Of a DNA stretch of 20,000 nucleotides, positions 5,536 through 20,000 are shown one piece after another (positions within the stretch are counted from its first letter, which is position 1; each line of letters starts with the position of its first letter). The translations under genes were made by a program, and so were the position numbers. Under the pieces are notes generated by a model, which saw only the letters and a program-made list of their open reading frames with translations, made no database searches and was not told the DNA's origin. Source of the DNA: Vermamoeba vermiformis (taxonomy: Eukaryota); assembly GCA_045837725.1 (NCBI GenBank), contig JBEWZL010000022.1, positions 119,715 through 139,714 on the forward strand, read 5' to 3'.

Positions 5536-7436
5536 CTACAGTCTTCCCCCCGCATTACGACGCCATTCCAATAGCCTACCAATGATAGGCGGCCAAATCG
5601 ACTTTGGGCACAAATCACGGAGAATTGGTAGGATCTGAAAGAATGATAAGATTATTGCAATAGGAATAAATAACTACGTACACTAGGCAGCTCGTGTTCA
5701 ATGTAGTACACAGCATAAGTATGTCTGCCAGTTCCGATATTAGTATTTGCAATCCAATCGATCACTGAGGCCGCTATTTCATCGGCCACGGCTTGCTCAT
5801 AATTCTCGTTGTTTTTCAGCAATTTTTTGACCAACGAAGCAAACAGACTCGGTAGTTGTGTGTTGTCTGCAAACAAGTTGTTAAATAAGCTTAAAACATG
5901 TACCATATTTATATGTGCTTACTGTATTCGGTCTTAATGATATTGAGAACCTGCGTCAGGTGTTGTGTGACAAACTCTTTGCTTGAATCTGCAATAATAT
6001 CTCGTAGCAGTGTTATTAAATCTGTGGGGCCGTGCAAGCGAACGCGTTCCTTATAGTCCAAGTCTGAGTCTGACTCTTCTTTCCATTCTTTCAATTTAAT
6101 GTCCCGAGTGTCGCCGTCACTCGCATTACTATCATAGTCCATCGAGTCCGAGCTGTGGCCTGAAAAGGACTCTTCATCTTCTATAGGCATAGCATCTCCT
6201 CCGTAGGGTTCGTAAATGTCTTCGCCAAATTCAGCTCGCATTCGATGTAATCTATTTCCTATTAAGGAAATTAAAGCTGATAGAGAGCTTTCAGGCACCT
6301 CTTCGATTTGCCTAATGTTTGAATCCAAAATAAGTTGTTCGATGGCTTCAACTTGCTCTATTTGGTACTCTTCAAGCAAGGTGCATAATAAACTTCGGCT
6401 ACATTTTGCTACCGCGCCAAAAAATTTTCCATTGCCCGGATCTGTGACGATGTATAATACTAGGTCCTTGTACTACCAAAAAGTATAATTAATATATTGC
6501 ATCATCATTACTATCTATGTATCCTCCTTACCTCAGCGATTCTATCGCAAGCAATGGCAAACTTTGCTATAATTTTATCAACTTGGTGTTGTTCATCGGC
6601 ATCACCTGCTTCATCGCCGAGTTGCTCTAATTGATCGAAAATCTTGTTCTTTTGCTCTTCCGTGAATACATAACTTAAATTGATGTTATGTTACGAAATA
6701 ACATATCTTGCTTGCAATCTGCTGTTGAAGAATTTCATAGTGATACAAGACCAGCATTTTGTCGTTCGATGGCCCGGTTGGCATCGGCAAAGAATCGAAC
6801 CTGAATTCGCATTAGATACTGTGGTGAAAAAAACGCAATCTCTCCTCTTACCCGCTAATCAATTTGCCAACCTCTTCATCAAGCTTCATAGATCGGGTGA
6901 AGTAGCTAATGAGCAGCAGTATCAAATGGTCGCGAGTTGTCTTGGGCGGGTAGATCCGTTGCAGAACTTTCAGCGATGACGAACCCATATTGTGTGATTC
7001 TAATAGGAAGCTAATTTGTAATTACATTATTGCATTATTAAGCATGCAACTTACGTACTTTGTCAAAATAACTCTGCACAGTGCTTCTGACATGCGACTT
7101 TACAGTTTGGTCGAGTATCTTAGTCATTGTTGATTAGTTACAATCATTAGGCCCATTTGATAGTATATTTACCAGCTCGTGTTCGATAGGCCAGGTCATT
7201 AATGCATTAATTAACAAGTGAAAGACTTCATTCAGCGTGTCAATAACTGGGACTCGTTCAGCTTCAAGACTTGGCCACTCTGCCTCCCTGCACAAATTAA
7301 TTCGGGCTGGCGACCGTTTAGCCAGCCAGCAAAGTTGCAACCTGGCCACAGCTGGCGGAATGGAAGGTCGGCACAGCTGGCGGAAATAGCGACGGCACAG
7401 ATAGAGGTATACGCGACTGGCCCAGATCCGGTGGTC
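5536..7436 (-). CDS. Multi-exon protein of unknown function (accessory gene B); 5' structure uncertain, possibly partly degenerate
   Basis: Splice-bounded exons approx. 7173-7436, 7055-7118, 6852-6999, 6716-6800, 6532-6673, 5923-6472, 5682-5866, 5536-5634. They give helical and acidic sequence (ILDQTVKSHVRSTVQSYF..., YVFTEEQKNKIFDQLEQL..., ILPILRDLCPKSIWPPIIGRLLEWRRNAGGRL*). The junction near 6674-6716 cannot be joined with a canonical GT-AG intron. An alternative ATG exists at 7127. Confidence 0.6.
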
Positions 7437-7606
7437 TATTTTAAGGTACGCCAAATATGGTAATTCAATATTTATTTATATATTACAATAGTAATTACAA
7501 TTTTCTATAGTAAACGCGGTGATGATTGTACATGCGATGCTGTGCTCCTGAAATAAATCAAATTAATAACGGATCTGATCTAACCTGAAGTTATTCGTAC
7601 TTACTT

Positions 7607-9228
7607 TTACTTGCCAACAGCGAATGACGTTGTGGTTCGGGTGCGAGTACTCACTGTTATTAGCAATCAGTCAGGTATTGTACGTATTTGTAACGGAGTT
7701 CTTACCGCGAACTGTTCCGCTGGAGTGCAGCGTATTGTTGTTATTGTTGTTTGATTGAAGGGCTTCGTTAGAGCGCTGCTGATGTGTAGATGAAGTCGCA
7801 CCCTTTTCAGGAGTGTTGTTACGATAGGCAGTGTCTGTTAAATTGTAAGAATTGCCGTTGATTGACACGTGTCACGTACCATTACACGGCTCTACCGGCT
7901 CAGCCATCTCATTGGCACCACTGCCCTCGTCAACTAAATATATTTAATGAGAATCTAAGTATTTTGCCTACAACTTGACATTACCTTGGATTGGCGGAAC
8001 TGCTTTCGGTTTCTGACCACGCTTTGGAGCTGTCAGAGCTTTAGGAGCAGGATTTGGCTCTGAATGCCACGTTAGTAATGACACTGACGTACAATATTTG
8101 TTTTCTTACCGTCGGGTGCCTCGCCAGCAGCTTGAAGTGGATTCAACGCAAAGTACTTCTCAACGGTTGTCATTTGACCGATTTGAGAACGGGCTTCAAT
8201 CTTATTCGGGAAAGCTACTTAACTGATTAATACTAATAATATAGACTATGAATACTTACTTGAAGCGAAGACCAACCTGTCCCTGATGAATGCGGCGATC
8301 GGATCTGGCATCGATATATTTTTTGACGATTTGATCTTGGTCTTGAACGTGTAGAATGCCAAGAAGACGTGTCTGATGAACTCCTTGCCATCTGGTGTTC
8401 GATAGAAGCTGGCATTATTGCGAAATTGCTCCAGAGTCTTTTCATTTGTCGGATCGAAGAGCTCTGCAACAATTTTATCGCAAGCCTCAGTACGGCGAGT
8501 GTTGAACCAAGTTATGACCTAAAATAATAAATTAATATACACTTACAATATATTAGGTTGCTTACTTACTTCTTCAAAGACCAAATCCACATCCGCTTCG
8601 GAGATGCGAACAACATTGTTGTTCTTCAACCAAGTCTTTGATTCGTCGTCCTTACGGAGTGTTGGATACTCTAAGAAGGCATCCAACATGTCTCCAACTT
8701 TTTCTTTCAACAGCTGTGCCTATAATGAAGTTAAAACGAGTTCAAAACTTGTAACGCGCGTACCCATCGAGACTTGGGTGGATCCTTTTGAGCAACTACC
8801 CAACCATCAATGCTCTGTATCGTTTCTTTAGGGAGCCTTTTCATCATATTGAATATGTCCCCGCTGATCAGGCCTCTTCGAAGCATCGCGATGTACATTT
8901 CGTACTGCGCTTCCGTAAAAGTACTGAAATGATCGCTTAGTAGAGTTTTTAAAAATATAAAAGCGGTTGAAAAGGTACTTACATATCAGGATGAATGTCT
9001 TCTAGCCTCCTGATGAATATTAAAAATTTAGTAAGCAAGATCCGCTCAAGATCGAGTACCGAAAAAAAGACAATTTGCTAAAAATAAACTGAGAGGAGGA
9101 AATATCGATTTCTAGTGCTTAATATATATTAAAAATTTAATTATAATAGCTGAGACGTACCTTCTCTTGGCAGGAGGATCGGATGCGGTATCTGAAACTT
9201 GGTCTAAGGAGCGCTTCTCTCCGGACAT
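7607..9228 (-). CDS. Multi-exon putative nuclear/DNA-binding protein (accessory gene A), about 10 coding exons plus a 5' UTR intron
   Basis: ATG at 9228. GT-AG splicing yields one open frame: MSGEKRSLDQVSDTASDPPAKRRRLEDIHPD...EEVITWFNTRRTEACDKIV..., then a low-complexity P/S/N tail to TAA at 7607. It has a bipartite NLS-like N-terminus. An intron-like segment at about 9243-9295 lies upstream of the ATG. Confidence 0.72.
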
Positions 9229-9353
9229 GACTACTGCTTGATCTACGTATTTATAGAATTAGTTAGAGCATTGATTAATTTCGAGTTGTTGCTTACATTT
9301 AGCAATTTTTAAGAAATTTGAACTTCAAAAAAATTCGGTTGGCGTTGACCACA

Positions 9354-12300
9354 ATGCAAGTTGATAGTCCGTTGTTTTATCAAGTGTCTCCGTTCAAATT
9401 TAAGTGCCTAATATGCAACATTAATGTTCGTCTATTGGACATCAAAAACCAAAAGCATATTAGTTCGCCGGACCATATAATTAAACATATAAGTTTACGT
9501 AAGTACGAAAAGACAATATTATAATTTAGATAATAATGAATAATTATTAGTGGAAGATATTAAGGCTCAATATGATGCCATTCGACAACGAGAAGAAGAA
9601 CATTATGATCGGATGGAAATTGACAACGAAGACGTACCTAACGAGGAGATTTTTGCTGAGATTGCAGGTCAAATAGGCGACGAAGGTTATTTGTCTGATC
9701 CTTTCTTGATCGAAGGCCTATCATGGTAAGTGTTAGCATTTTGACACGTGTCACATCAGATCTAATTTAAATTTTAATGTTTAAGGTCAATTGAATGCAA
9801 TTTGGTTGATAACAAGGCAAAATTTATGTTAGTTTTCAATGCAACTCCTGATAGATACGCAAGTATCATCTGTCGACTCAAAGCAAAATTAACGACAACT
9901 GATGAAGATCCAACCGAGGAGATTTGTAAGTGTAGTATTATTCGGCAAATCAATTAATATACTCGATACCTAGGTAAAGCGGGTATATTTAATCACCCAT
10001 ATGGTTCGTGCAAGACGGAGCTATTCTCACGCAATCTCAAGGCAGGAGATAAATTCAAAATTGAACTTACGATCGACGTACAGAGCTATCAAGAGGCAAA
10101 GCTTGAAAACCCTGATGACGCACAACCTGTCAAATCAAAGCGAGGAAGGCCTTCGCTTCACCTGAACCACGATAATTGGTCAACGCGGATGTTGTTGGTT
10201 TGGTACCACAACAACCATCATTCACCCTTATCAGGTAAAATAACAGTTCGAAAGAATATGCCAACTAACGTTTATAGAAAACGCGTTGATTCAATTGCTT
10301 GAAATTCTCAAGCATGAATTGTTCAACTTAGCGGATTTACCTTGGTCGATCCACGTACTCAAGAAATGCGACAGATTCGTTTTAGAATCGATGAAATTAG
10401 AGAAATATAAATTTAGTAACGGGCAAATTATTCAATATCATAATTTGCACGAGATAATGCAACGAATTCTGACTTCGATTGAGTTAACGAAAGGTAAGTG
10501 AAACGAATTTAATTATGACATAGCTAACTTGATGACAGATTGGATTGAGTCATCAACAGAAGATTACGATCATCCCTCAAGCGCAGAGGGGTGGAAAGAG
10601 ATCGAAGATCATTATAAAGACTTACTCGCAACGAGGAAAGCCATTCTCGTACTGCCAACTCTTTGGGTCGACAGCTTTGTTGGTGAGCTGACGCGAACCA
10701 AGTCCTTTTGTAGCTTCAGTCTCTCCATGGCCAACTTTTCGACGGAGGTCAATACCAGTCAATGGTTAAATGTATCACTTACGAGTTCGATTGACAGGTG
10801 TCAATGTCGCAAAAGGGTCATTTCTACATCACCACGTTGCCTCCGTCCCTGTTAAAGCTCAAAGACGAGTTCATTAAAGACGTTATACTCGACTTCTTCA
10901 ACAAGCTCGAGAATGGAACGCACATGTGCGTTGATTTCAAGGATCGTCGCGGATTGATTCCAGTAGGAACGCTCTACGCTATTAAGGGTTAGTTGATTGA
11001 TAACATAATCCATTTAACTTACCATCGTAGGTGATCATATGGGAAAGATTGAGTTGGCAGGAATCGTCGCTCCGTCAGGTAATTATCCTTCGTTCTACAC
11101 AACGACCGCGAAGGCTGATTTCAGTGACTTGGATCTCAAGAGGCAATTCCGAAGTCCAACAGAGAGTACGTCATTACGTTCTCTGTTACCCTATTTAACA
11201 ATATTAGGTCTTCGTAAGATTGAAGAAATGCTACGAATGACAAAGACACGAGCAAAAGAGGAACCTCCAAAGCACGGACTTAAACGAAGAAGAGTATGTA
11301 ATTAAAACGAAATATGTCATAACTTACGTTTAAATAGAGCCCATTATGGGATTTGAAACTCTTTGCCAACAACTTCTACCGCCGTTATGCCACTTGCCCG
11401 CTACATCTGTTCACCATGGGGATCGTCGACAAAATGGCTTTATATATGGGTGATGCGAAGACAGTTGCCTATCGAAAACGTAATGTTAGTTGAATAACAT
11501 AATGCGTTGCTTATTTGTGATCAGATATGAGCACAACGTTGAAACAAATGACGGCACCAAATGATTTACCAAAAATAACTATGAATATTTATCGTACAGA
11601 ATCCGGTAAGTAGGACATATCGTAATTTCAGTGTTAATTAATAATTAATTATAAAGATACGAATACGACTTCCTTACCTGGTGGGATGTGGATGTCGTAC
11701 GCGTACTTATCCATCATAGTCCACAAGCAATTGGTAAACTGCAGAGACGCTGCCTTGTATAATATCTCCCTGACAGAGCATCGTTTGTGGAAGCAAGTCA
11801 TGAATAGTGTCATTCGAATTTTAACGACGATCTGGCTGCCCGATCAATTGAAGACCAACGGAGAACTGGAAAAGTTGATCTATTCAATGAAAGCGTCAAT
11901 GCTAGTATGTTAATGATTAATAATCCGATCAAATCTAATATTAGAAATTTAGAAATTATTTCCAAAAGCAAGCTTCGAATTTCCAAACTTTGAAACCTTG
12001 TTCGCTGTACCTTATCAAATTCGTTATCTTGGTCCACTACATTTCCAAACGACGGAACGCGAAGAAGAAATGAACCGATTGAAGAGGCAAATCATTCGTA
12101 ATTTGAATCATAAGGATCCAGCCAACGATCTGACCAGTGCCGTAAGTACAGACCTAAGTAAAACAAATAGATTAATTCGAGTCAGATTGCTATTCGACAA
12201 GCAGCGACAAATGTAATGATCGATGTCGATGATACTAGAATGCCGTTCAACAAGTATTTCAGCAAGTCACGAGACAAGCAAGACACCGTTATCGAGTAAT

Positions 12301-12899
12301 TAACTTGTAGTTTGCAAAATTTAACACTGCCGTTATTAATATTAAATTTAGAAACTTTACCTTATTTGGGGAACGAGCAGAAAGAAACTTGGAACCAAGA
12401 GATCTGGAGCGGATTGAGGACTTGATCCTCACTGACGTGTTGTCCGATGAGCAAGTATCCCTCGTAGGTTGTTACGATGTAAAGGGATTCTACTATGGTT
12501 CATCGAAAATAGTCCCTGACGACCCAAAAAAGACCAATACACGAGAAGGATTGGTTCTTAACGCAAGTAAAATTAGCTGATAATTCGACCATTCTAATCA
12601 TACTTACATAGCACCGATATGATTCTAAAGACCATGTGATCGTTGGGCAGCTGCTTCACGTATTTATCGTCAATGCTCTGATTCAAGTGGTTGACGATCC
12701 CGGATCACAACGAACCGAGGAGTACTCGTTCGTAGCTCTTCGTAGATTGAAGTTGGAGAGTGCATTGTCCAAGGGTGTTAACGACGCAACGTTCTATAAG
12801 GAAATTGAATTTTATCCCCTGGGCTGGAACGAATGTCAGATCGCGTCTCGGGCAACAGTCATCGAAATTAATAACAGAGTTCATGTAACGATTAAATAA
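9354..12899 (+). CDS. CMC/EnSpm/Plavaka-like DDE transposase, 16 exons, about 941 aa
   Basis: Exons 9354-9498, 9551-9725, 9786-9925, 9974-10234, 10278-10493, 10539-10747, 10798-10987, 11031-11165, 11208-11293, 11338-11479, 11525-11605, 11657-11904, 11953-12141, 12186-12295, 12352-12562, 12612-12899 sum to 2826 nt with no internal stop; the last intron is GC-AG. CMC-like blocks in the expected order: LLEIL..LPWS, HPSSAEGW, LWVDSF..SLSMANF, KLENG, YAIKGDHMG..LAG, PLHLFTMGIV, IRYLGPL..TTEREEEMN..NHKD. Confidence 0.8.
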
Positions 12900-12952
12900 T
12901 TTAATTTTTCAAAATAAAAGTCTATTTAATATACTGCAAGAACTTACGTTTA

Positions 12953-14130
12953 TCATTGAGTTATCTGCGAAGCTGGGAAAAGTGCTACTGTCCCTTGATC
13001 GGATCCGCCAGTCAACAGGCGTAATACTTTATCAGTTTTGTAGCTCCATGGATAAACTATGGCTCTTGCGAAATAAATATCAGTAATTAGATTCGGTAAA
13101 ATATTCAATACTATTGTGTATTTGATTGAAACTTTGGTGATCTATTTTAAATACTATCGGGTGACAAAAATTAATTTTGATCGCTGATTATTTACGTAAT
13201 TATATTATTTTATATTATTACGTACCTTGGAGTGCTGTAGTAATTTTAGTGAGCTACATCTGCGATCTTGACATCGCCAACTCCATTTAATGGACTCATA
13301 CTCTGACCAAACTGATATCAATATTCTCTACAGCATAAATTGTTCGTTTTAATGATGTTAAAAATACCTCTATTGTGGTCAAGTGTAAGAGTCGCTCGGA
13401 CAGATGCAGAACGAATTTTTTTTTTTCTCTTCCGTGCTTTCTGTCATTTGTCACTATAATATGTTAGTATACATCGATACTAACCTTACATATACACTTT
13501 CTACCAATTTTGATGACAAAATTTTCCAGCCCGGTGAGAGTGATCTGAGCGCAATTCGCAGCGAAAAAAATTTCATAACAACCGCTCAAATAGAATGAAC
13601 TGTTGCAAAAATATGAATCCCCCTGTATTCGGGGTATGTCAATGATCAACAATGGCCAGTACATCCTCCTGTATTTAATAAATTAACGCGTCTTTGATCC
13701 GGGATACTTCGTTTATCACCACCGACGAATATGGTCTCAATTCTGGCATTATGCAAACCGAATGATAGTGCTACATCACGCTATTTAATATTTCTGGAAT
13801 ATCTCCGCACTGACCAGAATAATCACGTCAGATCGAAGACATTTTCGGTTTTTTTCAATCATCCCGCATTGTATGACCTCACCTGTGTTCACCACAAAAT
13901 ATTCATAAATGTATTGGTTATTATTGGTCCTCGCATATGATAGCGATGCAATGTATTCCGCATCTCAAACCTGAAATCGTTAATCGTAGATCCGCTACGT
14001 AAGAGAGCAAAAGGTAAACCATCTTCATTAAAAAACATTTTATTAACGTTAATAATTAAATTTACAAATATTTAACACTCTGGGCTTGATCTACTTCATG
14101 ATCCTGTGTTTCACCGTTGATCAGCCTATT
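12953..14130 (-). pseudogene. Fragmentary exon-like segments of an unresolved minus-strand gene
   Basis: Several segments bounded by AG/GT with protein-like reading (e.g. DAEYIASLSYARTNNNQYIYEYFVVNT, RMYWPLLIIDIPRIQGDSYF, RILISVWSEYESIKW, AIVYPWSYKTDKVLRLLTGG...*). They could not be joined into one frame. Confidence 0.3.
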
Positions 14131-14199
14131 TTATCGGGTTAATTATCATTAATATTAATTAAACATATTATTACGTCCATATTTACCATCGGATTCCCT

Positions 14200-15483
14200 C
14201 TACGAGCTCGGTTTACGCCGATCTAGTAAAAAATTAAATCTGCTTACCTCCAACTATTTAACGTCTAAAACCCCTTATTATATAATTAAATATATGTAAA
14301 TAAATATATTTTATCATATCTAATATTATAACTTACCTAGCATCGCGGATGTTCGCTTCAAATCTGAGATCCGGTGAATCCAACACTGCCACCCTCGTCG
14401 CCCGTTAGTACCAACACCCTTCGAACCCCTGCTACCATCGCGACACTTCTCTCTGCTCGTGTCTCTTAGCGCCAATGGTACCTATCGGTACCTGGCGCGC
14501 AATCTCCCAGGCCAGCTGGGATTTATTTGTGCAGGGCTTATCATAATGCAGCACTGAAAACACAATGTTGAACATCAATGCTATTCCTCGACTGTACTCC
14601 AAGTCCTTTCGTTCGATGAGGTCTACGTACTTGTACATGAATTGCAAAATAAGCCTATTGCGCCGATTAGTAGGACGGCATTAAGGATTGAACAGTACCT
14701 TAGTAATGGCGTTGATAATGCGCCTTGAAAACAGCCTATGCGTAAGAACCATGAGCCGATGCCTACATGCTTGACACGAGTGCCAGTACACTTCGAAGTC
14801 ATGACCAGATCCATCGTCAGAACGAACTTTGTTATGTCCACTATTGTTTGTTTGTGTATTAATTTCGAATATACTTCTTTGCGTTCGTCGGGGAGTGTGT
14901 AATAAGCTGTTCCGTATTCAACGATAAAGTTCACAATTGTTTTCAGATCGCGCAATGTGAACCATGTTTTGTCCATCACTTCGTCCAGTATTTCCTTGAT
15001 AACCTTCTTGTCATTCGTTCCATTCAGGAGGAACCTCACCTCAAATGTGTCAATATTGTCGTATAAAAACTGGAGGCCGCGAGAAAGCGAAGGAAGAGTA
15101 GATCTAGTGCAAAATTAGCTCATAATTATTTTTAGAGACCCCTATAGTTGGCATTGATTACGTACTTAATGTCGTAGACGGTTTTCCAGTCAATCCGAGA
15201 TTCTGGTAATTCAAATAAATAAATAAAATAAATACTGCCAGATGTGATAGGCATTACCTTTATCGATTGTTGGAATAAGCCAATTGCGTTTACAATCTTG
15301 TTTGTTTGGCAATGAGGACCACGTCTCGAGACATTTTTGTCTCCATAACTCGAGAACTTTGCTCATCTGAAACCATTTTTTATTGACCACGATGCAAGGA
15401 CCTGCAATGGAAAAAAAATGTTAAAATTATTTAGTAAGTCTAGGTATCAGTTAACAGTCTAAGTTCACCGACCAATTTGCTCG
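14200..15483 (-). pseudogene. F-box protein gene, interrupted at its 5' end by the retrotransposon
   Basis: Exon remnant 15473-15483, then 15258-15401, 15166-15202, approx. 14699-15103, 14492-14654, 14337-14386, 14200-14222. These read EQIGPCIVVNKKWFQMSKVLELWRQKCLETW...IDWKTVY..., i.e. the C-terminal half of an F-box plus typical flanking motifs. A canonical TACTAAC branch point lies at 14404-14410. The 3' end is less certain. Confidence 0.65.
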
Positions 15484-15608
15484 ATGCAGCGACACTGCCG
15501 AAGGAAGTTAGCGCCGGAATATTGCACGGAAGTGAACAGCCACGTGCATGTCAAGCTGTCAACACTATTTCCTGGTAATTCTTGGCCGTCCGTTATTACC
15601 TCGCCATT
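15484..15608 (+). repeat. Split direct repeat A1 (minimum extent)
   Basis: 125 nt starting ATGCAGCGACACTGCCG, identical to 19876-20000. Confidence 0.95.
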
Positions 15609-15674
15609 GCAGCACCACAACTCGCTGCTAGATTCGCATTGTAACGTATATTTTTTCTTTTCCTTGGTAATAAA

Positions 15675-17105
15675 ATGAGCGAATCTACGTCGCGATCTGC
15701 AGGCACTCGTGCCAACAACCTGGAATCCCTACGAACAGCTCTTCAACAAAACTCAACAGACCCCAATGCATGGAAGATTACTCTCAGCGGAATCACGAAA
15801 TGGCAGTCACGCATCGACAGCTGTGGATCAGATTTGGAAAATTTTCGCCTGCTAGCAGCCATGGCCCTGGCTATTAATTTGGGTGGTAATTTGAAATTAT
15901 TAGAGCGCAGCCAACCAACAAGTGCGGATTTCCTGGCAGAAATTTACGAGAAAGCGAGAGATGCGTCAGATGCACCGTTGTATATTCCTCTACTTGCACC
16001 CCTGACGAAGAGAATCGAAGAACTAGAGGGAATTCCGCCTATTGATCTGGAACTGGACGTCGGATCAAAGGAGGTGTCTCTTGACGTGGACCAATTTCAG
16101 TCTTTGGCCGAATCGGCTGATCCACAGACCAGAGAGGTGGTGGAGAAGATTCTCCGTAAATCTGTCACCCCAAGCAAGTCCAAGGCACCCAGCAATGCCA
16201 GTTCGCAACCTTCACCGCCGCCGCAGACTCAATCACTTCAAGCCCCGCCAAACAACGAGTCTTTCAATTCGAATGCTACGATGGCTCAGTTTATGAATTT
16301 ACTCCAAGGTTTGGTCCATCAGCAGACGGTCCCGTTGCCAACAAATGCTGCCGTTCCCCCTCACGTGGCGGCCCAACCTCCTCCAGCACCGGGTATGCAA
16401 GCACCTAACGTCGTTCCGAATGCAGCAGCGCAAGTTGGCGCCCCACCACCACCAACGAACTACAGTGCCCCTACGCAGCAAGCTCCACCACAACAAACTC
16501 ACGCTTCAGCAATCCCAGTCACAAGAGGCATCTCACTCCCTTCTACGGCGACAGTCTCGATCCAAGGCTCGGTTTTGCTCCCACGCAATTACTCGAAAGA
16601 AAATCAAGGCAAGAAAGCCTCAGCAGACAACAAGCTCCCGTCCTCAGTGGAGGAGTATTTGCATGCAGCTCTCACTATTGGTGACGATTTGGTGAAGTAC
16701 GTTCCTGGACAGGACGAGTTGCAATACTGTAAGTACATCCGTTGGATCTTTGACCTGCATTGGAACTACACCTGGTCTTCGGTCATGATTCTAGACGAGC
16801 GCTTCCGATATGAGCAGGCGACAGGCTCAAAACAATGGTCAGACCGCCCGTGGGAAATGGTGGTGATGATCCTCGTGCAGAAGACGGGCCAGACTGATTC
16901 AGAGAGACCAGAGAGACCGGAGCAGACAGTCTGCCTCAATTTCAATCGCGAGAAAGGCTGCTCATACAAGCATTGCAAGTTCCCTCACTTCTGCGTGATC
17001 TGCCCAGAGAAGAATTTCAAGCATGGAGCTTTTCATTGCAGCAAGAGGTCGGGAAATGCCAACCCCGGGCAGGCGAATTCATCGGCCGCTCCTGGTCGGG
17101 GGTAG
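15675..17105 (+). CDS. gag: Gag-like ORF1 (476 aa) with C-terminal Cys/His zinc knuckles
   Basis: P/Q/A-rich linker, then YTWSSVMILDERFR...W and CLNFNREKGCSYKHCKFPHFCVICPEKNFKHGAFHC, which is typical of Ngaro/DIRS ORF1. Confidence 0.88.
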   Translation: MSESTSRSAGTRANNLESLRTALQQNSTDPNAWKITLSGITKWQSRIDSCGSDLENFRLLAAMALAINLGGNLKLLERSQPTSADFLAEIYEKARDASDAPLYIPLLAPLTKRIEELEGIPPIDLELDVGSKEVSLDVDQFQSLAESADPQTREVVEKILRKSVTPSKSKAPSNASSQPSPPPQTQSLQAPPNNESFNSNATMAQFMNLLQGLVHQQTVPLPTNAAVPPHVAAQPPPAPGMQAPNVVPNAAAQVGAPPPPTNYSAPTQQAPPQQTHASAIPVTRGISLPSTATVSIQGSVLLPRNYSKENQGKKASADNKLPSSVEEYLHAALTIGDDLVKYVPGQDELQYCKYIRWIFDLHWNYTWSSVMILDERFRYEQATGSKQWSDRPWEMVVMILVQKTGQTDSERPERPEQTVCLNFNREKGCSYKHCKFPHFCVICPEKNFKHGAFHCSKRSGNANPGQANSSAAPGRG

Positions 17106-18670
17106 ACATTGTGGCCAAGCTCAGCACCTTGACAATCAAGTTCTCACTCTGGTCGAAGTTCCTTGAAGGGGATCCTGATAAAGAATTCCTAACAGAGATC
17201 TTTGCACCGGGAGGTGGTTTCAAGATCGTTGGCCCGAATGTCAAGGTGCCTAGCTCTGCGGTGGCCAACTACAAGAGTGCGCTGGATGCGTGGGACATTG
17301 TCGATCGCGACATCAAGCAAGAATTAGCCAGTGGCTTCATTGCACAGGTTGACTTTGTTCCACGGAAGATCAACGCAATCGGCGTGGTCGCAAAGAAGAA
17401 TGGCAAGCTGCGACGCATCACGGACCTTAGCAGACCGAAAGGAAAGGCCCTGAACGAGTTCACCCACACTGTGCACTTCGAATTTGCTTCAATTGACGAT
17501 GCCTGCCGTGTCATCTTGCTCTACAAGATCGTCTTTGGTGGCAAGTTCGATCTAGTCTCAGCTTATCGTCATATCCCAATCTGGCCAGAGCATTGGGATT
17601 TGCTTGGTTTTATGTGGGACGGTGTCTATTACATTGACCTCCGTCTTTGTTTTGGCCTGAACACTGCACCATATGTCTTCTGGCGAATCTCTAATTTTAT
17701 AGTCCGCGTAGGCAACAAATATTACAACGTGGTATTTATCATCCCATACATGGACGACTATCTGGTGCTGTCCCCAGGCAACACAAGAGAAGAAGCGAAG
17801 GACAATTGTACTCGCGACTGCAATAACTTCGCACAATGCCTATCTGACATGGGCTGGGAGATTTCAGCAGAGAAATTCGTTGCTCCCTGTCAAGACCTTG
17901 TCTTCCTCGGTATCCGCATTAATTTGGCTGATAGAGTTCTCTCGTTGCCAGACGACAAGTTGGCAGCCCTGCTCGCGCTGTTGAAAGAGTTCTCCTCACG
18001 CACGTCAGCGATCAAGCGCCAGATCGAGAGTCTTGCAGGGCATCTCAATTTTGCCTGTAAGGTCGTTCGTGGTGGCAGGACTTTCCTTCATCGCATAATC
18101 ACGCTGATGAACACGGTTGATGATCACAATGCAGAGGTGAAGTTGGACGACGAATTTCGCCTGGATGTCCAATGGTGGCTGGATTTCGCATCAGAGTGGA
18201 ATGGCAAAGCAGTAATGCTTGATCCTCATCCTATCGACTCACGCCGCTTCAGTGTTGACGCCTCAAACAAGGCGGTATGTGCCATTTTTGATAATGAATT
18301 TATCATCTTCGAACACGACGACATCACTTCATCGTGGCACATTAACGACAAAGAGTGCTTCGGAGTCTTCATTGCGGCCCTGCGTTGGGGTCATTTATGG
18401 CAGAATTGTCATATCGTTGTGGAATCCGACAATTCTACAACAGTCGCAGCGATCAACTCAGGTTCGTGTCGCTCGAAGAATATCATGCACATGCTGCGAA
18501 AGTTATTTGGCATCTCAGCTCGTTTCAACTTCCACATTACGGCAAAGCACGTGCCAGGCATTCTCAACACTCTCGCTGACGCTGGCTCTCGGCTAAACCT
18601 CACTCCACTTGTCGAGGCGAACTTGTCTATGGTCCCATGCCCTGCGACTGAAAATCTACAATGGAATTAA
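16973..18670 (+). CDS. pol: Reverse transcriptase / RNase H ORF (no ATG start)
   Basis: RT motifs GKLRRITDLS, KFDLVSAYRHIPI, LCFGLNTAP, YMDD, FLGI. RNase H motifs VDAS, INDKE, ESDNSTTV, HVPGILNTLADAGSR. Confidence 0.95.
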   Translation: MQVPSLLRDLPREEFQAWSFSLQQEVGKCQPRAGEFIGRSWSGVDIVAKLSTLTIKFSLWSKFLEGDPDKEFLTEIFAPGGGFKIVGPNVKVPSSAVANYKSALDAWDIVDRDIKQELASGFIAQVDFVPRKINAIGVVAKKNGKLRRITDLSRPKGKALNEFTHTVHFEFASIDDACRVILLYKIVFGGKFDLVSAYRHIPIWPEHWDLLGFMWDGVYYIDLRLCFGLNTAPYVFWRISNFIVRVGNKYYNVVFIIPYMDDYLVLSPGNTREEAKDNCTRDCNNFAQCLSDMGWEISAEKFVAPCQDLVFLGIRINLADRVLSLPDDKLAALLALLKEFSSRTSAIKRQIESLAGHLNFACKVVRGGRTFLHRIITLMNTVDDHNAEVKLDDEFRLDVQWWLDFASEWNGKAVMLDPHPIDSRRFSVDASNKAVCAIFDNEFIIFEHDDITSSWHINDKECFGVFIAALRWGHLWQNCHIVVESDNSTTVAAINSGSCRSKNIMHMLRKLFGISARFNFHITAKHVPGILNTLADAGSRLNLTPLVEANLSMVPCPATENLQWN

Positions 18671-19747
18671 CAACAGAGCAAATCCTAGCTGCAGGTTTTG
18701 CCGAGAGCACGAACAAAGCCCGCAATTCCATCGTGTCAAATTTTCAGCAGTTTTGCACGAACAACAGTGCTCCATTTCTCCCTACGGATATCAATACTTT
18801 ATCCGCGTACATCACCTTCCTAGCTAACAAGAAGATCAAAGCTAGCACAATCCGCACGTACATCGCAGCGATCGGTACGCACCACAAATTGAATTCACTA
18901 CCCAACCCAGCAGAGAACTCTTTCCTCGTCAAGACTATGCTCAAAGGTGTCAAGCGTCTGCAAGCGTACATGCCTAGCGGCAAGCACCCACTCACGACTC
19001 GAGAACTGCTCCTCATTTACAACACGCTCAATTGGTCCAGGTCACGCGATCGCACTTTTTGGGCATGCCTGGTTATTGGGTTTTGGACTTTCCTCAGAGG
19101 CGGAAATCTCGTACCCAATGCCTCAAACAAGTTCGACGCTGATAAGCACGTGTCAGGTCGGTCGCTGATCATTGCCAAAGATCGAATTATGATTGGTTTG
19201 CGTCGCACAAAAACCATTCAATTTAACGAGAGGAAACTCATTCTACCTCTCGTCCCAGTGGCAAATTCGCCTCTATGCCCTATCTGGGCTCTTGCTCAAA
19301 TGTGGGAGCTATGTCCTCTGCAGGACCAGGGCTCTCTCTTTGCGTATGCTGACGCTAGCGGCGTCAAGCAATTGCTTCATGCGAAGCTGAACGAATGTAC
19401 GTATCGCTAGATACAGCGTAGTCAATTGGCATTGACTAAATCTTCACTTTGCAGTGATAAAACAGGCTTGCAAGCAAGCGGGCCTGAATCCTGAGCATTT
19501 CTCCGCTCACTCATTGCGGAAGGGCGGAGCAACGAGCGCTCTTCTAGCAGGTGCGGATGAAATTCTAGTGAAATCTCAGGGAGACTGGGTCTCCGACGCC
19601 TACAGGCGCTACATCTCTTTCTCAATGGAACAACGCGAACAGATTCCACGCGTCATTGCTGACGCCATGAAATCTCCCGAGTTCAACACTCGCTGCGAAA
19701 CTCTCGCGTGGTCGACCTCTCTCTCTCTCTACAACGGTTTGGGGTAA
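18661..19747 (+). CDS. Tyrosine recombinase, 2 exons (18661-19396, 19455-19747; 342 aa)
   Basis: N-terminal SAM-like region (STIRTYIAAI). Catalytic residues R (FLRGGN), K (RTKT), HxxR (HSLRKGGAT), W (GDW) and Y (AYRRY). Removing GTACGT...TTTGCAG (58 nt) fuses the two ORFs in frame. Confidence 0.92.
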
Positions 19748-19875
19748 TTCCCTTCGGGTTGGGGTCTGTAGCGTCACTCGGGTGTGCTGGCACAACACCC
19801 AGTGACTCTGAGGCTAAATAAACCACCCGTATTTACCCCCAAACCTCGTGAGAGAACGAGAGATAAGCAATATTC
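19748..19875 (+). repeat. Putative B1 segment / 3' UTR with AATAAA (19817-19822) and extensive self-complementarity
   Basis: Lies between the YR stop and A2. A second copy (B2) is predicted outside the window and was not observed. Confidence 0.55.
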
Positions 19876-20000
19876 ATGCAGCGACACTGCCGAAGGAAGT
19901 TAGCGCCGGAATATTGCACGGAAGTGAACAGCCACGTGCATGTCAAGCTGTCAACACTATTTCCTGGTAATTCTTGGCCGTCCGTTATTACCTCGCCATT
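19876..20000 (+). repeat. Split direct repeat A2 (truncated by window edge)
   Basis: Identical to 15484-15608. Confidence 0.95.

Follow-up and report, generated by a model that had tools for sequence, protein, structure and literature searches.

A transposase-like gene of Vermamoeba vermiformis with a D-D-E-like triad and without the zinc ligands of CMC-type transposases

Can a DDE transposase of the CMC (CACTA/Mirage/Chapaev) or CMCT kind dispense with the zinc-binding module of its insertion domain and still persist as an intact gene? The question is raised by a transposase-like gene at 9354..12899 (+ strand) of a 20,000-nucleotide (nt) stretch of Vermamoeba vermiformis DNA (GenBank assembly GCA_045837725.1, contig JBEWZL010000022.1, positions 119,715 to 139,714 of the forward strand), hereafter the window. 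An earlier note, made from the letters alone, had described the gene as a CMC-like transposase that had lost its zinc ligands. We found that the unbroken frame, the proposed triad and the absence of the ligands held, whereas the CMC identity gained no support from profile or sequence searches. The product is most likely a very divergent transposase-type DDE enzyme related to EnSpm/CACTA, Plavaka and Transib/RAG1 (CMC/CMCT), without the C2H2 zinc module that in every described member holds the two ends of the insertion domain together. The fuller reading that we favor is that of a CMCT-type gene, much diverged and derived from a transposase, whose product functions in the absence of the zinc module and which has probably lost its mobility; in our estimate this reading stands at an even balance.

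The gene is real and intact. Removal of 15 introns joins 16 exons into one unbroken frame of 936 amino acids (a.a.), from the ATG at 9354 to the stop codon at 12897-12899, with a coding length of 2,811 nt; before intron removal, the + strand of 9354-12899 holds short open frames only. The introns lie, in order along the + strand, at 9499-9550, 9726-9785, 9926-9973, 10235-10277, 10494-10538 (introns 1-5), 10748-10797, 10988-11030, 11166-11207, 11294-11337, 11480-11524 (introns 6-10), 11606-11656, 11905-11952, 12142-12185, 12296-12351 and 12567-12630 (introns 11-15), the last being placed there because the frame must be kept. All 15 are GT..AG introns of 42-64 nt, with all 30 splice dinucleotides intact. 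The donor is exactly GTAAGT in 6 of the 15, most introns carry a branch site resembling CTAAC, CTTAC or TTAAC, and their guanine-plus-cytosine (GC) fraction is 0.28, as compared with 0.42 for the coding sequence (composition from 2,800 of the 2,811 coding nt). Two junctions are uncertain: intron 6 has a weak donor, GTCAAT, and an alternative acceptor 18 nt downstream (10815) that would yield 6 a.a. fewer, and intron 8, which is 42 nt long, in frame and stop-free, may be retained. The motifs described below are unaffected whichever choice is made. One splice junction probably accounts for the difference between our 936 a.a. and the 941 a.a. counted previously. Three RNA runs under the same species label gave 0 reads over 9000-13200, a null outcome with no bearing on expression; run X3 contained just two identical 151-nt pieces.

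The three residues that the earlier note had proposed as catalytic were found in this spliced frame, and their positions are directly observed. The proposed first catalytic Asp, D357 in LWVDSF (exon 6; 10670..10672, + strand), is assigned by motif and spacing only. The proposed second Asp is D447 in KGDHMG (exon 8; 11033..11035, + strand), and the proposed Glu is E711 in TTEREEEMNRLK (exon 13, TTEREEEMN; 12055..12057, + strand). The three residues are thus arranged as D(90)D(264)E. According to PMC4914335, the triad of mouse RAG1 consists of D600, D708 and E962, with spacings of 108 and 254 rather than 90 and 264.

The same paper describes C727/C730 and H937/H942 of RAG1 as one zinc-binding domain, and reports that mutations of the zinc site destabilize the fold (PMC4914335). 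C727 and C730 lie at +19 and +22 after D708; at these offsets from D447 the present protein has S466 and T469, within NYPSFYT (a.a. 463-469; 11081..11101, + strand). H937 and H942 lie at −25 and −20 before E962; at these offsets from E711 it has F686 and T691, within FPNFETLFAVPYQIRYLGP (a.a. 686-704; 11980..12036, + strand), the expected place of H(3-4)H, in which F686-L692 occupies 11980-12000 and G703-P704 occupies 12031-12036.

The absence of the ligands does not depend on this comparison. A complete listing of Cys and His residues confirmed the claim that all four zinc ligands are missing: between D447 and E711 the only Cys residues are C539 and C622, and the His residues are H448, H513, H542, H567, H616, H635 and H706 (seven in all). 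There is no Cys in a.a. 427-538, so that the C(2)C of the CMC/CMCT clade is absent, and neither His nor Cys in a.a. 636-705, with no Hx3-4H anywhere after a.a. 236, so that the H(3-4)H is absent as well. The sole CxxC of the whole protein is C18/C21, and the sole Hx3H pairs are H41/H45 and H232/H236; because these all lie upstream of D357, the lack of C(2)C and H(3-4)H is independent of alignment. No CxxC or Hx3-4H occurs between D447 and E711, and realignment cannot restore one. Hence no alignment in which D357, D447 and E711 stay in place can undo the ligand-free state, which is observed directly, as is the intact frame.

A further motif of the insertion is present. CPLH (C539-H542; 11395..11406, + strand) lies 92-95 residues after D447 and is of the C/DxxH type. 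CMC enzymes reportedly (a statement ascribed to Yuan and Wessler, 2011) usually carry Asp in the first position of DxxH, and CPLH had previously been taken as a deviation from that form. We count it as retained because CXXH is the conserved form in hAT enzymes; by this analogy it is better read as a normal motif than as a third loss. H542 is plausibly the third conserved His of the clade (the xxH motif), an equivalence suggested by position. As a separate observation, C539/H542 and H616/C622 are the only closely paired Cys and His residues of the insertion (a.a. 539-622; 11395-11742); that they form a substitute metal site is conceivable in principle, and is pure speculation.

Relatives of the protein are scarce. 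A HMMER search with exon 7 (a.a. 383-445; 10798..10987, + strand), which lies between the two Asp residues and is the sole part of the gene with a detected relative, returned 2 matches among 1.84 billion representative proteins. The first, P0001 (E 9.4e-7, 42% identity, 25 of 63 residues identical to exon 7), is an 80-a.a. fragment of an open reading frame (ORF) from one 3,014-nt Logan contig. It shares PPSL and DFFxKLExGT with exon 7 and reaches no ligand position. The second match, the repeat protein P0002 (E 7.2e-4), was judged spurious. Word-indexed protein searches with exon 6, exon 12 and exons 8-9 found nothing, in a collection from which the window's own ORF is also absent. Pattern searches gave 592 and 283 matches in metagenome contigs and 111 and 21 in viral contigs, none of which was confirmed. 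The protein family is thus very rare in public data.

The alignment with P0001 ends right after ..KG, which is the end of exon 7, and this departure fits a common intron position. Exon 7 and P0001 differ by a minimum nucleotide divergence of 27.5%. We also observed that the 13 residues of P0001 past ..VKG resemble intron 7 (10988-11030) read in the same frame, with NIIH in common. Among 45 intron-frame translations compared with this tail, intron 7 scored best (23, vs 20 for the next), with a shuffle P of 0.175. If the likeness were real, intron and exon would have diverged at similar rates, and at least one copy would have evolved near-neutrally.

We then asked to which family the gene belongs. 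Single exons and in-frame intron read-throughs (X at stops) served as queries in profile and sequence searches; two frame-shifting introns divide the D357-D447 core, which was therefore covered exon by exon rather than in one piece. Several of the results weigh against the favored reading. No transposase family was matched in Pfam by 10 single exons at E<=1, by four in-frame read-throughs at E<=10 (one of them the 268-a.a. read-through from CPLH to beyond E711), or in a repeat search with P0001 and the core exons. NCBIfam gave no match, and phmmer against all Protein Data Bank (PDB) chains gave unrelated weak matches only, with no sequence match to the solved RAG1 and Transib chains. The missing Pfam profiles include PF02992, PF13960, PF18759 and PF26100, as well as that of KDZ (Kyakuja-Dileera-Zisupton, PF18758). 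AlphaFold2, run without an alignment on the 268-a.a. read-through of exons 10-13, gave a mean predicted local distance difference test (pLDDT) score of 36.9, too poor for a fold search.

Further points on the same side concern the motifs and the composition of the gene. Of the five non-catalytic residues that are reportedly conserved throughout the clade, the protein lacks four, as would also be expected of a non-member, and the detailed resemblance of the motifs to CACTA and Plavaka sequences is one that we presume. In relative synonymous codon usage, the gene and the neighboring ORFs show a correlation of r = −0.01; this codon usage is unlike that of the neighbors, so that a 'host-like' character is unsupported, and we regard the comparison as uninformative. 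That the neighbors are ordinary host genes is likewise assumed, as Pfam gives neither of them a family.

The positive leads come from the Atlas, which lists language-model look-alikes. For exon 13, which carries E711, the first matches scored 0.95 and 0.94, with 171-179 shared features, and 10 of 30 matches were clusters with PF13960 DUF4218 (10% of members), mostly from Basidiomycota. In CACTA-type transposases, the Glu block lies within DUF4218. Exon 7 scored 0.87 to clusters in which PF02992 Transposase_21 occurs in 21% of members and PF26100 RAG1_RNase_H in 12%, alongside the unrelated CbeA_antitoxin (0.88) and DUF1280 (0.87), the top rows being unnamed. These scores are leads only, and they too have points against them: the recognition value of exon 7, 2147, is below the mark of 2300 and its family rows are below 0.9, and the agreement of all ten family matches of exon 13 also arises in one of three shuffled proteins. 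Because of these look-alikes and the RAG1-like spacing, we consider CMCT ancestry rather probable. The family assignment itself is weak, and since the two clade-defining features, C(2)C and H(3-4)H, are absent, we do not file the gene as a CMC/CMCT member; its product nevertheless probably works as one.

Closer comparison with the described lineages shows how far the likeness goes. The gene resembles EnSpm/CACTA (TNP2-like; PF02992 with PF13960) in its proposed D-D-E, its insertion of ~260 a.a. between the second D and E, its xxH in the middle of that insertion and a GP...ER...LK-like block around the Glu, in addition to the Atlas look-alikes with DUF4218 and Transposase_21. Such a block around the Glu is typical of EnSpm/CACTA transposases. 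The gene differs from these transposases in lacking the HMM (hidden Markov model) match, C(2)C and H(3-4)H, and neither CAC..GTG termini nor a target duplication was found in the window. To Plavaka, the fungal CMCT lineage (PF18759), it is similar as a fungal-type transposase gene with introns and, presumably, in its motif order after the first Asp; it differs in having no PF18759 match, and the TGT..ACA and CATCA..TGATG ends were not seen. Kojima 2025 (PMC12730594) gives C(2)C and H(3-4)H as common to every lineage, from plant En/Spm to RAG1, and counts '2C and 3H' as conserved; Plavaka, as described there, keeps both C(2)C and H(3-4)H, and the gene here has neither. CMC elements have been described from Basidiomycota and Mucoromycotina.

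Might the gene then lie outside the clade? It could come from a different DDE superfamily, such as a hAT-like one, that has a CxxH motif and a large insertion domain, or it could be a lineage-specific protein with a coincidental D-D-E. The failure of every CMCT family to match by HMM or by sequence, the absence of the clade-defining C(2)C and H(3-4)H, the Cys form of CPLH, as in hAT enzymes, and the lead-grade nature of the Atlas evidence all suit this explanation. The hAT models, however, were unmatched by the exons and read-throughs too: no hAT-type Pfam family was found, including the BED finger and the hAT dimerization domain, which we take to be PF05699. In Hermes, the CxxH (C265/H268) closely follows D248, whereas here the CxxH is 92-95 residues past D447 and there is nothing near +20. 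In addition, the Atlas family rows worth weighing are of the CMCT type (DUF4218, Transposase_21, RAG1_RNase_H). On balance, we consider a non-CMCT origin unlikely.

We hold a second alternative to be just as improbable, namely that the gene encodes the transposase of an element that still moves, is low in copy number and represents a new, zinc-free CMCT-like lineage; the ends of the element may be very short, or it may take in the neighboring genes. The intact frame, the full D-D-E-like triad and the kept CxxH count in favor of this alternative, and one real relative among 1.84 billion representatives is more in keeping with a mobile element of patchy distribution than with a host gene under conservation. 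That relative is only 42% identical, and its possible resemblance to an intron read-through hints at near-neutral divergence (weakly, the shuffle P being 0.175). Moreover, neither flanking gene has a recognizable family.

The architecture of the locus argues the other way. The upstream divergent gene starts at 9227, leaving an ATG-to-ATG gap of ~127 bp, and the last ORF of the downstream convergent gene ends at 12953, ~54 bp from the stop codon; given this 54-bp gap, the 3′ ends of the two convergent genes nearly touch or overlap. Terminal inverted repeats did not exceed chance: between the 126-bp 5′ spacer and the 512 bp downstream, one inverted match of k=9 was found vs 0.56 expected, and none of k>=10. 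No credible CA..TG termini with target-site duplications of 2-5 bp were found within the 20-kb window. A tblastn search of the gene model against the window found only the gene itself, with no second copy or fragment. The 15 introns are of the same small-intron style as those of the adjacent, apparently multi-exon genes, and the one clear mobile element of the window has long unbroken ORFs and a GC fraction near 0.50. Because no terminal repeats were detectable and the gene is wedged between two others, we lean toward a copy that no longer moves, whether domesticated or stranded, rather than an autonomous element that is still active.

A dead relic, in which the zinc site was lost by decay and the frame is still open by chance, would explain why all four structural ligands are gone and why the codon usage is unlike that of the neighbors, but we regard it as very improbable in view of a 2,811-nt frame open across 16 exons, 30 of 30 intact splice dinucleotides, the kept CxxH and proposed triad, and the Ser and Thr at zinc positions with no frameshift or stop nearby.

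Outside the proposed catalytic region, the N-terminal part of the protein has two candidate DNA-binding features. A C-x2-C-x13-H-x5-H pattern (C18, C21, H35, H41; 9405..9476, + strand) resembles a C2H2 zinc finger and is likely a DNA-binding module; as exon 1 has no Pfam match, the zinc-finger-like reading is one of pattern only. KRGRP (a.a. 209-213; 10138..10152, + strand) reads as AT-hook-like, a motif of this type being, as we take it, an AT-hook core.

How might such a protein work? We infer its fold, catalysis, family and loss of mobility as follows. The N-terminal C2H2-like finger and the AT-hook-like KRGRP would bind DNA, and D357, D447 and E711, placed on an RNase H-like core, would coordinate the metal ions for catalysis. 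The CPLH histidine, H542, would lie near the active site, like the CXXH histidine in Hermes, and ordinary packing, involving S466/T469 and the Cys- and His-free a.a. 636-705, would replace zinc coordination.

A fungal precedent exists in another superfamily. In PMC4763223, CXXH is described as conserved in hAT enzymes, with H268 of Hermes in the active site and the motif needed for hairpin formation. Kat1 of Kluyveromyces lactis, a domesticated hAT transposase, keeps its DDE and CXXH and still cuts DNA, and its C402A/H405A mutant retains DNA nicking and loses hairpin formation (PMC4763223). Kat1 differs from the present gene in its superfamily, its BED finger and its known function and target sites. 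By analogy, it may serve as a working model if the gene here is domesticated. Our non-exhaustive literature search found neither a zinc-less CMC enzyme nor a CMC-derived domesticated gene in fungi. To our knowledge, no immobile or domesticated zinc-free CMC-derived protein has been described in fungi.

The neighboring genes and the remaining features of the window are as follows. The upstream neighbor (~7500-9227, − strand) and the downstream neighbor (~12953-15375, − strand) are both apparently multi-exon. The former has no Pfam match, even with read-through of one in-frame intron, and the latter matches no Pfam family above cut-off. A WFNTRR in the upstream neighbor recalls helix 3 of a homeodomain; that assignment was dropped, as Pfam gave it no support. 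Among longer inverted pairs in the window, the best, at 7286-7311 and 14511-14536 (85% over 26 nt), was rejected as a set of element ends, since the downstream gene has a coding exon where the right arm falls and a matching 3-bp duplication is lacking. A 14-nt palindrome with a CACGTG core, TTGACACGTGTCAC, occurs at 7862-7875, 9741-9754 and 10791-10804, as two exact copies, one of them inside intron 2, and one copy at 86% identity; two exact copies per 20 kb are about what chance would give.

From 15484 to 20000, the window holds a tyrosine-recombinase retroelement of the DIRS/Ngaro kind. Its ORF at 16898-18670 matches RVT_1 (E 1.1e-9) and, weakly, RNase H families, and its ORFs at 18652-19410 and 19436-19747 have integrase-type matches below the Pfam cut-offs. 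The 125 nt at 15484-15608 recur without change at 19876-20000, the window end. Its GC fraction of ~0.50 contrasts with ~0.40 around it and its long ORFs are unbroken, and for these reasons the retroelement looks recent.

Taken together, the locus suggests, tentatively and with more doubt than confidence, that a CACTA/RAG1-type lineage dispensed with the C2H2 zinc module while keeping its triad and CxxH, and that the result, kept in this compact genome, is an immobile, intron-rich, domesticated gene for a possibly still DNA-cutting protein. Should the family link fail, it would be merely a lineage-specific gene, an ordinary finding. If the gene is domesticated, it would be a CMC-type addition to the short list of transposase-derived fungal host genes, of which Kat1 is an example (PMC4763223). 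If the favored reading of a zinc-free CMCT-type gene is true, a natural, intact relative without the zinc site would mean that the module is replaceable, and would offer a test case for whether the role of zinc in these enzymes lies in fold stability or in catalysis.

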